Of a stretch of 64,000 bases of DNA, positions 17,506 through 19,492 are shown piece by piece. The notes beneath the pieces were generated by a model. That model did no database searches, was not told the origin of the DNA, and worked only from the letters and a program-made list of their open reading frames with translations. Every line of letters begins with the position of its first letter. The first letter of the stretch is position 1. The position numbers and the translations under genes were made by a program. The DNA lies in contig OX597816.1 of the NCBI GenBank assembly GCA_951406725.2, forward strand, positions 163,122,001 to 163,186,000, in the 5' to 3' direction. Source of the DNA: Octopus vulgaris. Lineage: Eukaryota.

Positions 17506-17668
17506 CATTATTTACGTTATTTACATTATTTACATTTGACGGATATTTTGTCCTCGTGTTGTTTGTTGTTAACTCAACTTTTCGGCTGATGTACTCTCCA
17601 GCCTTCATCAGGTGTCCTGGAGGAATTTCGAACCTGGGTTCTCATACCTAAAGTATTTTTCCGATGTT
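17506..17668 (-). mobile_element. Hammerhead-bearing 3' module, left arm of head-to-head element
   Basis: Reverse complement of 19325-19460; contains the hammerhead at 17571-17616. Confidence 0.85.
17571..17616 (-). ncRNA. Minimal type I hammerhead ribozyme motif with two substitutions in the 3' half
   Basis: Minus strand GACAC-CTGATGA-A-GGCTG(GAGAGTACAT)CAGCC-GAAA-AG-TT-GAGTT. The sister arm reads GAAA-CG-TT-GTGTT, which restores stem I GACAC/GTGTT and the palindrome AACGTT. Confidence 0.75.
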
Positions 17669-17862
17669 GTTGTGTTATTATTATTATTATTATTATTATT
17701 ATTATTATTATTATTAGTAGTAGTAGTAGTAGTAGTAGTAGTAGTAGTAGTAGTAGTAGTAGTAGTAGTAGTAGTAGTAGTATTACTATTACTATTATTA
17801 TTATCATCATCATCATTATTATTGTTATTGTTGTTGTTATTATTATTATTATTATTATTATT

Positions 17863-18311
17863 GAGTGAGAGAGCAGTTCATGCCATCAAAGTGACACGGG
17901 TAAAATATACGAAGCCCAATATACCCATCATGACTACCCGTCTGATAAGGGTACACCAGGCACATGCATCACAACCATATGTGCGAGACATGGTGATCTC
18001 ATATCAAGATAAACAGCACATGACCTTGCAGGTGGGGCCCAGTTAGAATTTTCTTGAGGTTGAGTAGCCCATCCCGCTCAAACGGTCCCTGAATAAGGGT
18101 TGTTTAAGGATGTTGAAAAAACCACCCATGTTTCCAGAGGTGAACTATTCAAACCCCAAAGAATCCCTCTCAACACATGGCTATGATGCTCCCCCACTAC
18201 TTCTGCTCGTGATCAGAGATGCACATATCGTCAGCCACTAAGGGACATGCTCAACTGGTTAAGGTCAAACAACTGACAAGCAAATCTGTGGTATTGAGCA
18301 GAATATTTGCT
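17863..18311 (-). mobile_element. Element D, 5'-truncated, in (TTA)n
   Basis: Reverse complement of the 3' ~450 bp of D; (TTA)n on both sides. Confidence 0.92.
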
Positions 18312-18399
18312 CAATATTATTATTATTATTATTATTATTATTATTATTATTATTATTATTATTATTATTATTATTATTATTATTATTATTATTATTATT

Positions 18400-18480
18400 C
18401 ACGTCAGGTCACTGTCTGGAATCGAACTTGGAACCTTGGGATAGGTTGCCTGCGCGCTTAACCACTACGCTGTATGCCCG
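18400..18480 (-). mobile_element. tRNA-like Pol III head followed by (AAT)n
   Basis: Minus strand GGGCATACAGCGTAGTGGTTAAGCGCGC...CCAAGTTCGATTCCAG: A box and B box at tRNA-like spacing, no intact acceptor stem. Confidence 0.75.
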
Positions 18481-18594
18481 TGGGCAGTATAATAATGATG
18501 ATGATAATAATAATAATAATAATAATAATAATAATAATAATAATAATAATAATAATAATAATAATAATAATAATAATAATAATAATAATAATAA

Positions 18595-19137
18595 ATGCCC
18601 TGATGCAGTACCAGGCAGTGGCTCTCATGCCTTCTGATCTTAACTGATTGGAAGTGTTATCATGTACATTGTTTTGTCTTGGTATAAAAGATGGGCTACA
18701 ATACCACAGATTTGCTTGTCAGTTGTTTGACCTTAACCAGTTGAGCAGCATGTCCCTCAGTGGCTGACGATATGTGTATCTCTGATCACGAGCAGAAGTA
18801 GTGGGGGAGCATCATAGCCATGTGTTGAAAATGATTCTTTGAGGTTTCAATAATTCACCTCTGGAAACATGGGTGTTTCGTTCAACGTCCTTAAACAACC
18901 CTTATTCAGGGACCTTTTGAGCGGGATGGGTTACTCGATCTGAAGAAAATTCTAACTGGGCTCCACCTGCAAGGTCATGTGCTGTTTATCTTGATATGAG
19001 ATCACCATGTCGCGCACATATGGTTGTGATGCATGTGCCTGGTGTACCCTTATCAGACGGGTAGTCATGATGGGTATACTGGGCTTCGTATATTTTACCC
19101 CAGTGTCACTTTGATGGTATGCTCTGCTCGCCCACTC
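18595..19137 (+). mobile_element. Element D, full length, in (AAT)n
   Basis: Starts ATGCCCTGATGCAGTACC, the same 5' end as the copy ending at 63227; ends CCCACTC-(AAT)n; no recognisable ORF. Confidence 0.92.
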
Positions 19138-19183
19138 AATAATAATAATAATAATAATAATAATAATAATAATAATAATAATA

Positions 19184-19323
19184 AGAAGAAGAAGAAGAAG
19201 AAGAAGAAGAAGAAGAAGAAGAAGAAGAAGAAGAAGAAGAAGAAGAAGAAGAAGAAGAAGAAGAAGAAGAAGAAGAAGAAGAAGAAGAAGAAGAAGAAGA
19301 AGAAGAAGAAGAAGAAGAAGAAG
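19184..19323. repeat. Pure (AAG)n tract
   Basis: About 140 bp of uninterrupted GAA. Confidence 0.97.
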
Positions 19324-19324
19324 A

Positions 19325-19492
19325 TCGGAAAAATAGCATAGGAATGAGAACCCAGGATCGAAATTCCTCCAGGATACCAGGTGCATCAGCCGAAACGTTG
19401 TGTTAGCAACAAACAAGATGAGGACAAATATCCTTCAAATGTAAATAATGTAAATACTGTACATAATTCCTCATCTCTCAAGTATAGAACTG
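19325..19492 (+). mobile_element. 3' module, right arm of head-to-head element (CUGAUGA core deleted)
   Basis: GAGAACCCAGGATCGAAATTCCTCCAGG...CATCAGCCGAAACGTTGTGTT...TGTAAATAATGTAAAT, ending TATAGAACTG|TA. Confidence 0.85.

Follow-up and report, generated by a model that had tools for sequence, protein, structure and literature searches.

What kind of mobile element places two copies of a short hammerhead-bearing module on opposite strands of octopus DNA, with a tRNA-like sequence between them, and whose enzymes could have moved it? The locus lies in a stretch of 64,000 nucleotides (the window, to which all coordinates refer). We propose that it represents a non-autonomous retroelement of ~0.3 kb comprising a tRNA-like head, an (AAT)n tract and the 3' pseudo-LTR (pLTR) module of a Penelope-like element (PLE), with the Pol III head linked to the rest, a reading to which we assign a probability of about 0.6. 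Such an element is probably a SINE-like parasite of PLEs that is driven by Pol III.

Two arms and a strand switch

In a search of the window against itself, positions 17507-17671 matched 19467-19318 on the opposite strand with 81% identity (E 6.5e-34), and the only two copies of the module in the 64 kb were both found within 17507-19496. This bears out the inverted head-to-head arms described earlier from the letters of this DNA (the sequence-only reading), and 17507-19496 is a single head-to-head insertion. The left arm carries, on the minus strand, a pLTR-like 3' module without a terminal tail (17507-17664, 81% identical to the right arm), which is covered at very high depth in all four sequencing runs considered below and whose left junction is bridged by contigs of two of them, X4 and X5. 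The right-arm module (19325-19467, plus strand) holds a remnant of the hammerhead at 19373-19404 with a 14-nt deletion in its core. Over 143 aligned columns the arms differ by 18 substitutions, gaps besides. A terminal tail (19468-19492, plus strand) is present in the right arm only, extending 25 nt past the end of the left arm, or 31 nt if counted from 19462. At the strand switch, a 5-bp palindrome with a 2-nt spacer can be read directly at 18475-18486; its presence had been recognised previously, but the position given, 18476-18487, was one base off. Hairpins of this size occur at 730 of 50,000 random points.

The unit is bracketed by a probable 12-bp target-site duplication (TSD), both copies being given on the plus strand. 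The left copy (17495-17506) abuts the left arm, and the right copy (19497-19508), which starts 4 nt after the tail, matches it at 11 of 12 positions. A 12-mer with one mismatch and a 4-nt offset from the GAACTG end was equalled by 47 of 20,000 random zone pairs. Neither the one-arm tail nor the flanking direct repeat had been described in the sequence-only reading. A further direct repeat of 73% identity, 17389-17492 and 19600-19696, was considered as a TSD and rejected as too long and too far off; we interpret the two segments, one in each flank, as relics of another, older repeat.

The letters of the arms themselves bear on whether they arose together. The family majority, as obtained from the sequencing runs, differs from the left arm at nine places. 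At four of these (17591, 17617, 17621 and 17623) the right arm has the left-arm letter, against a majority of 80-96%, and at the remaining five it follows the majority, a pattern that we ascribe to subsequent decay of the left arm. The four common minority letters imply that the arms derive from one template or from a rare subfamily.

Since the module with a Penelope-type minimal hammerhead in both arms, the tail on one arm, the bracketing 12-bp repeat and the junction palindrome are published hallmarks of PLE insertion, the inverted dimer is a PLE integration scar and not a retrozyme. According to the available text of two sources (PMC3846280, PMC8557442), insertions of EN+ PLEs comprise the unit, an adjacent inverted and 5'-truncated copy, an optional tail of 30-40 bp at one end, a palindromic junction and a TSD of 8-10 bp. 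At the present locus there is likewise an adjacent inverted partner that is 5'-truncated and joined at the 5' ends, and we are highly confident that 17507-19496 is a PLE-type insertion. The PLE-like inverted structure and its origin in a single event, both put forward in the sequence-only reading, thus hold in the light of the probable TSD and the shared minority letters, but the special dimer design that went with them does not, since its features are standard for PLEs. The insertion is old, and for an element of this class the head-to-head pair is ordinary, the tRNA-like head less so.

A minimal hammerhead in an abundant module

The left arm contains a minimal type-I hammerhead at 17571-17616 on the minus strand, with stem I at 17616-17612/17575-17571, the core CUGAUGA at 17611-17605, an extra A, stem II at 17603-17599/17588-17584, GAAA at 17583-17580 and a predicted cut after 17576. 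Stem II is 5-6 bp long and stem III is vestigial. A minimal type-I descriptor found this one site in the window (core 17611-17605, minus strand) versus none in 60 dinucleotide shuffles, and no hammerhead match was obtained in Rfam. Whole-strand MFE folds yielded stem II only and no hammerhead fold (z -2.4 for 61 nt), as is expected of a motif lacking stem III. In the right arm, 14 nt from U4 through the 5' strand of stem II are missing, while the palindromic AACGUU and the 3' side of stem I are retained; on cofolding, the AACGUU stretch self-dimerises through 6 bp.

It had been suggested that the two arms are differently damaged and that a ribozyme can be reconstructed from them together, and the family majority indeed restores the motif as proposed. 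The left arm departs from the majority at 17579 (position 15.2) and at 17574 (stem I), where the right-arm letters are those of the majority (69-77% of depth at 17579 and 96-99% at 17574 in the four runs). With these letters, and with no variant reaching 5% listed at 17599-17613 in the contigs of these runs, the motif of the typical copy is intact. Both hammerhead copies at the locus itself are probably dead.

The form of the motif is that of the minimal hammerheads of PLEs, with an extra nucleotide after A9, G10.1-C11.1, a long stem II and a palindromic 15.2-16.2, all of which appear in the available description of those ribozymes (PMC4209133). A 5-bp stem I and a palindromic vestigial stem III are also common to both, and the octopus letters predict no structural difference from the PLE form as far as that description goes. 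In the same source, PLE minimal hammerheads are found as opposite-strand pairs 100-700 bp apart with very low activity, and single minimal motifs gave no cleavage. In our reading the hammerhead would be cargo of the captured pLTR, and that cutting would be possible only as a trans dimer or with the help of a protein.

The abundance of the module was assessed with the contigs of four DNA-type runs (X1, X4, X5 and X6, bearing four organism labels; 4 of 24 listed), mapped on 17400-17696 at 80% likeness, so that copies decayed below 80% are not in the counts. Between 6180 and 11596 contigs per run mapped there, nearly all at 17507-17660. The ratio of median module depth to unique-flank depth, which is no copy number as such, was ~50,000 in X1, 55,000 in X4 and 35,000 in X5, and module copies number roughly 10^4-10^5. 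Contigs of X4 and X5 extend from the unique flank across the boundary of the element (17400-17540 and 17400-17536), which means that the insertion is common to the organisms so labelled. A different upstream sequence, visible over 30 letters, meets the module at 17634 (41-81 records per run) and could be the 3' end either of an autonomous PLE or of a sister family. No change of strand occurs among the 15 joints listed (of 28), and as short contigs break at repeats this is uninformative on the frequency of inversion.

The same contigs record how copies end. In each of the four runs, the top-ranking loose end before 17507 was the tail followed by TA (74-125 records, agreement 0.54-0.61), and with this the fixed GAACTG|TA end class anticipated in the sequence-only reading was recovered. 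Further loose ends, AT-rich and without consensus, occur at 17506, 17513 and 17517; these are tail-less ends in AT-rich targets. Tailed and tail-less classes occurred in each of the four runs, matching the account in the available text of PMC11167929 in which the tail is the stretch between two reverse transcription start sites.

Other collections contributed little to the picture. Exact-pattern scans for the module gave no matches in metagenome, genome or viral contigs, and of 19 viral matches to a 16-mer plus one bacterial match to a motif of element D (see below), none of the 20 loci could be aligned with the window at E 1e-4. Left-arm translations (ORFs running from the module into the head) gave either no hits in protein collections or three unrelated repeat proteins. 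An unrelated bacterial contig picked up through a chance 19-mer (L020, 53-1530) carries spaced, imperfect inverted-repeat copies between short ORFs, a pattern that we take to resemble an integron cassette array.

The tRNA-like head, the triplet tracts and later insertions

On the minus strand, box motifs and their spacing define a tRNA-like head at 18400-18479, with a Pol III A box at 18471-18462 and a B box at 18427-18418. The head proposed previously for the left arm is thus present, its start being corrected from 18480 to 18479. The A-plus-B pattern occurs at four sites in the window versus 0.017 per shuffle, and two of the four appear tRNA-like by eye. Neither ARAGORN nor Rfam called the head as a tRNA; when folded, hairpins resembling a D-arm and an anticodon arm form, and a T-arm does not. 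The next best nhmmer match in the window had an E of 0.19, so the head is unique there. At the motif level, then, an A/B-box head is present at the 5' end of the left arm, and its boxes would be expected to drive Pol III transcription. A B-box-like motif near 17630 was also considered as a promoter and set aside, as no A box was found with it.

The head begins exactly at the strand switch, and no AAT tract precedes it. Since in this it is unlike element D, we infer from this one locus that it is the true 5' end of the left arm. The right-arm GGGCA, earlier taken for the remnant of a second head, is only 5 nt long and too short to be one. That head and module are linked across the family is suggested by the one locus, the contigs having covered 17400-17696; within that span, the segment 17640-49, which lies between the tract and the shared motif, is covered in X1, X4 and X5 at 71-78% of the depth of 17620-29. 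Octopus assemblies presumably contain the order head, tract, module as a common repeat, and the repeats of the window have an octopod look.

Directly 3' of the head, tandem-repeat analysis finds an (AAT)28 tract (18315-18399, minus strand), and a second, partly mutated AAT-type triplet tract lies between element D and the module (17675-17862, minus strand; TRF period 3, 62.7 copies). The right, 5'-truncated arm opens with an (AAT)n tract (18489-18594, plus strand) and has (AAT)15 followed by (AAG)47 at 19138-19324 (plus strand), both from tandem-repeat analysis. Triplet tracts are therefore found where simple (AAT)n spacers had been described, but they are not simple: the right one is (AAT)15 plus (AAG)47 and the left one a mixed triplet run.

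Each arm is interrupted within its tracts by a copy of element D. The left copy (17863-18314, minus strand) is 5'-truncated and entered the tract later; its identity is 97.1% with the copy at 61960-62444 and 93.9% with the right-arm D. The right copy (18595-19137, plus strand) is an independent and apparently full-length insertion, which shares its 5' start with the copy ending at 63233. The two belong to different subfamilies. As the left D is closer to the distant copy than to the right D, the two entries were separate and took place after the inversion, and the generation of D by the inversion was rejected on the same evidence. Six of the seven D copies in the window have AAT runs on both sides, in agreement with the earlier suggestion that the TAA tract serves as a landing pad: D is a later invader of TAA tracts. 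Three D copies are stacked in TAA runs at 61500-63233, and two 5'-truncated copies open with an inverted copy of their own 5' sequence (61761-61829, 69 bp; 18306-18314, ~8 bp).

A 5'-truncated LINE fragment (59527-61296, minus strand) lies beside a 1.2-kb patterned TAA array (58350-59516). It is 55-60% identical to reverse transcriptase proteins of other animals, with an RT-associated zinc-binding domain at E 1.6e-5, below cut-off, and from its motifs we take it to be of the Dong/R4 type. Dong elements target TAA according to the accessible part of PMC3812793. D was considered as the 3' end of this LINE and rejected, as the 3' ends differ.

Several other repeats share the window. A tRNA-headed repeat adjoining the unit (16957-17342, minus strand) is 94-95% identical to 50695-51080 and is unrelated to the unit's head except for the box motifs. 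A 5S rRNA-like copy at 38891-38987 (minus strand; Rfam 39.1 bits, cut-off 38), with its 3' domain partly missing, is probably a pseudogene or the head of a 5S-SINE. Decayed mariner-type transposase fragments (Pfam Transposase_1, HTH_48 and a weak DUF4817) are found at 34178-35019, 47526-47888 and 31064-31390.

Origin of the unit and known systems

We propose that the unit was copied in trans by the reverse transcriptase and GIY-YIG endonuclease of a PLE. RNA would be transcribed by Pol III from the A and B boxes, and the PLE protein would bind the module and cut AT-rich DNA on both strands, 12 nt apart. From two reverse transcription start sites, two cDNAs would be made, one with the tail and one without; the tail-less cDNA would reach the 5' end of the head, and the tailed cDNA would stop within the tract. 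Joining of the cDNAs head to head via a short fold-back would yield the palindrome and the TSD. The TAA tracts would later attract two separate D insertions and expand. In the available text of PMC3846280, PLE terminal repeats (pLTRs) suffice in cis for mobilisation in trans, and PMC11167929, likewise from its accessible part, reports that a PLE protein in vitro cleaves both strands of AT-rich DNA and extends them, that it initiates reverse transcription from a pair of internal sites bounding the tail, and that mutating the hammerhead leaves insertion unimpaired. The unit has no room for an ORF encoding reverse transcriptase and GIY-YIG endonuclease, and no GIY-YIG or RT-core Pfam family was found in 67 window frames (mostly from 229 non-repetitive frames).

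On a wider version of this proposal our judgement is evenly balanced: that the locus belongs to a tRNA-derived Pol III SINE family of tens of thousands of copies that is mobilised by a PLE and not by a LINE, has captured a pLTR (hammerhead plus tail) as its recognition signal and inherited the PLE insertion geometry, and through whose internal TAA tract microsatellites and target sites of TAA-specific elements arise across the genome in several related species.

The linkage of head and module is where the proposal can most readily be disputed. The arms could be ordinary inverted PLE 3' ends, or a headless non-autonomous PLE derivative, and the tRNA-like piece an unrelated short TAA-tailed SINE that entered the tract later. 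TAA tracts here do draw insertions, as seen in six of seven D copies and in the LINE fragment beside its TAA array; the head is directly followed by (AAT)28, like a SINE tail; its linkage to the module is suggested by a single locus; and the second upstream sequence at 17634 (41-81 records per run) indicates that the module also exists without the upstream part of the arms. However, a later TAA-targeted insertion should have tract on both flanks, whereas the head has none on its 5' side and begins at the inversion point itself, and a fold-back copy of its first 5 nt is found on the other side of the junction. We therefore regard a separate, late-arriving SINE as unlikely, though it is the alternative to which we give the most weight. 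It is also conceivable that the unit did not arise in one retrotransposition event, and that two copies of a very abundant repeat, differing at 18 of 143 columns plus gaps, inserted independently or that one copy was duplicated by fold-back at the DNA level. The four minority letters common to both arms speak against independent insertions. Against a DNA fold-back stand the one-arm tail, the TSD-like repeat and the fact that neither flank is an inverted copy of the other. The origin of the two D copies in different subfamilies also counts against such histories, which we consider very improbable.

A cycle like that of Sm-alpha or a retrozyme, running through hammerhead cleavage and a circular RNA and integrating as an inverted dimer, would likewise join a Pol III promoter to a hammerhead, a combination known from schistosome repeats in the available text of PMC6765202 and PMC6155905. 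The core of the family majority is intact (no variant listed at 17599-17613 reaches 5%), and a 2026 preprint, as far as its accessible text goes, derives animal retrozymes from PLE pLTRs (bioRxiv 10.64898/2026.07.22.740005). But the ribozymes here lie on opposite strands, so that no transcript of the locus carries two sense copies, and no head-to-tail repeat is seen at the locus; for these reasons the label of a retrozyme hybrid, given in the sequence-only reading, is dropped. Furthermore, the insertion ends of the family map to the tail boundaries, ~60-90 nt downstream of the cut site, and not to the cut site, hammerhead mutants were without effect on insertion by PLE protein in vitro (PMC11167929, available text), and single minimal motifs showed no cleavage (PMC4209133, available text). 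A ribozyme-driven cycle thus has very little chance of being correct, and we favour mobilisation of the tRNA-headed unit by a PLE.

Non-autonomous PLE derivatives are known (PMC8557442, in its available part). In the freely available full texts, judged for the most part from listed matches, no tRNA-headed, PLE-mobilised SINE or octopus hammerhead repeat was found described, though subscription journals, Repbase, Dfam or further supplements may contain one, and neither the SINEBase paper nor a paper on small-RNA-derived elements mentions such a family in its available text. A 2026 octopus repeat annotation (PMC13282606) counts, in its accessible part, 893 recently active SINE families that are unclassified, along with 190 Penelope-like ones, and with so many of both the sequence may already sit in an existing library under another label. 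The unit's sequence motifs, sought in the full texts of papers, gave only two unrelated hits to one motif, and none in the supplements searched. Ohshima and Okada reportedly described the octopus tRNA-derived SINEs OK, OR1 and OR2 in 1994.

SINEs are defined by borrowing the enzymes of LINEs through a common 3' end. If our reading is true, a SINE that borrows from Penelope would extend this rule to a third class of retroelements. Tens of thousands of short natural insertions would then mark out how little sequence suffices as the cis signal (~130-160 nt) and where the two reverse transcription start sites lie, and would show how inverted partners and junction palindromes are formed, which are open points of the PLE mechanism. 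If the head proves to be unlinked, what remains is an ordinary decayed pair of PLE ends.

Amongst known systems, tRNA-derived SINEs resemble the unit in the tRNA-like head with A and B boxes, in shortness and in high copy number (here that of the module). Unlike them, with their LINE 3' tail, the octopus unit has a PLE pLTR module as its 3' part and ends in a PLE-type tail rather than a simple repeat, with no match to the 3' end of the LINE in the window. The schistosome Sm-alpha and Sj-alpha repeats (PMC6765202, PMC6155905, available text) are also short, with a Pol III-type promoter upstream of a type-I hammerhead, but they are tandem and their canonical, fast hammerhead releases monomers, whereas in the octopus unit the motif is minimal, the tail is that of a PLE and the scar is inverted. 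Animal non-LTR retrozymes, in the accessible descriptions (PMC7229834; bioRxiv 10.64898/2026.07.22.740005), are like the unit short, non-coding, hammerhead-bearing and proposed to depend on PLEs; they are defined by head-to-tail tandem units, each with its own hammerhead, and by circular RNAs, while the octopus locus has no tandem units but two copies on opposite strands, and a tRNA head is not mentioned in those parts of the descriptions. The insertion units of EN+ PLEs (PMC3846280, PMC8557442, PMC11167929, available text) share with the octopus unit the head-to-head arms, one of them 5'-truncated, the ~30-nt tail at one end, the junction palindrome and the AT-rich targets. The TSD of EN+ PLEs is 8-10 bp long, and the probable one of the octopus unit 12 bp. 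In contrast to EN+ PLEs, the unit has no RT/GIY-YIG ORF, and its long arm opens with a tRNA-like head that has A and B boxes and contains an (AAT)n tract internally. It resembles a PLE end in its working, but it is not an autonomous PLE.
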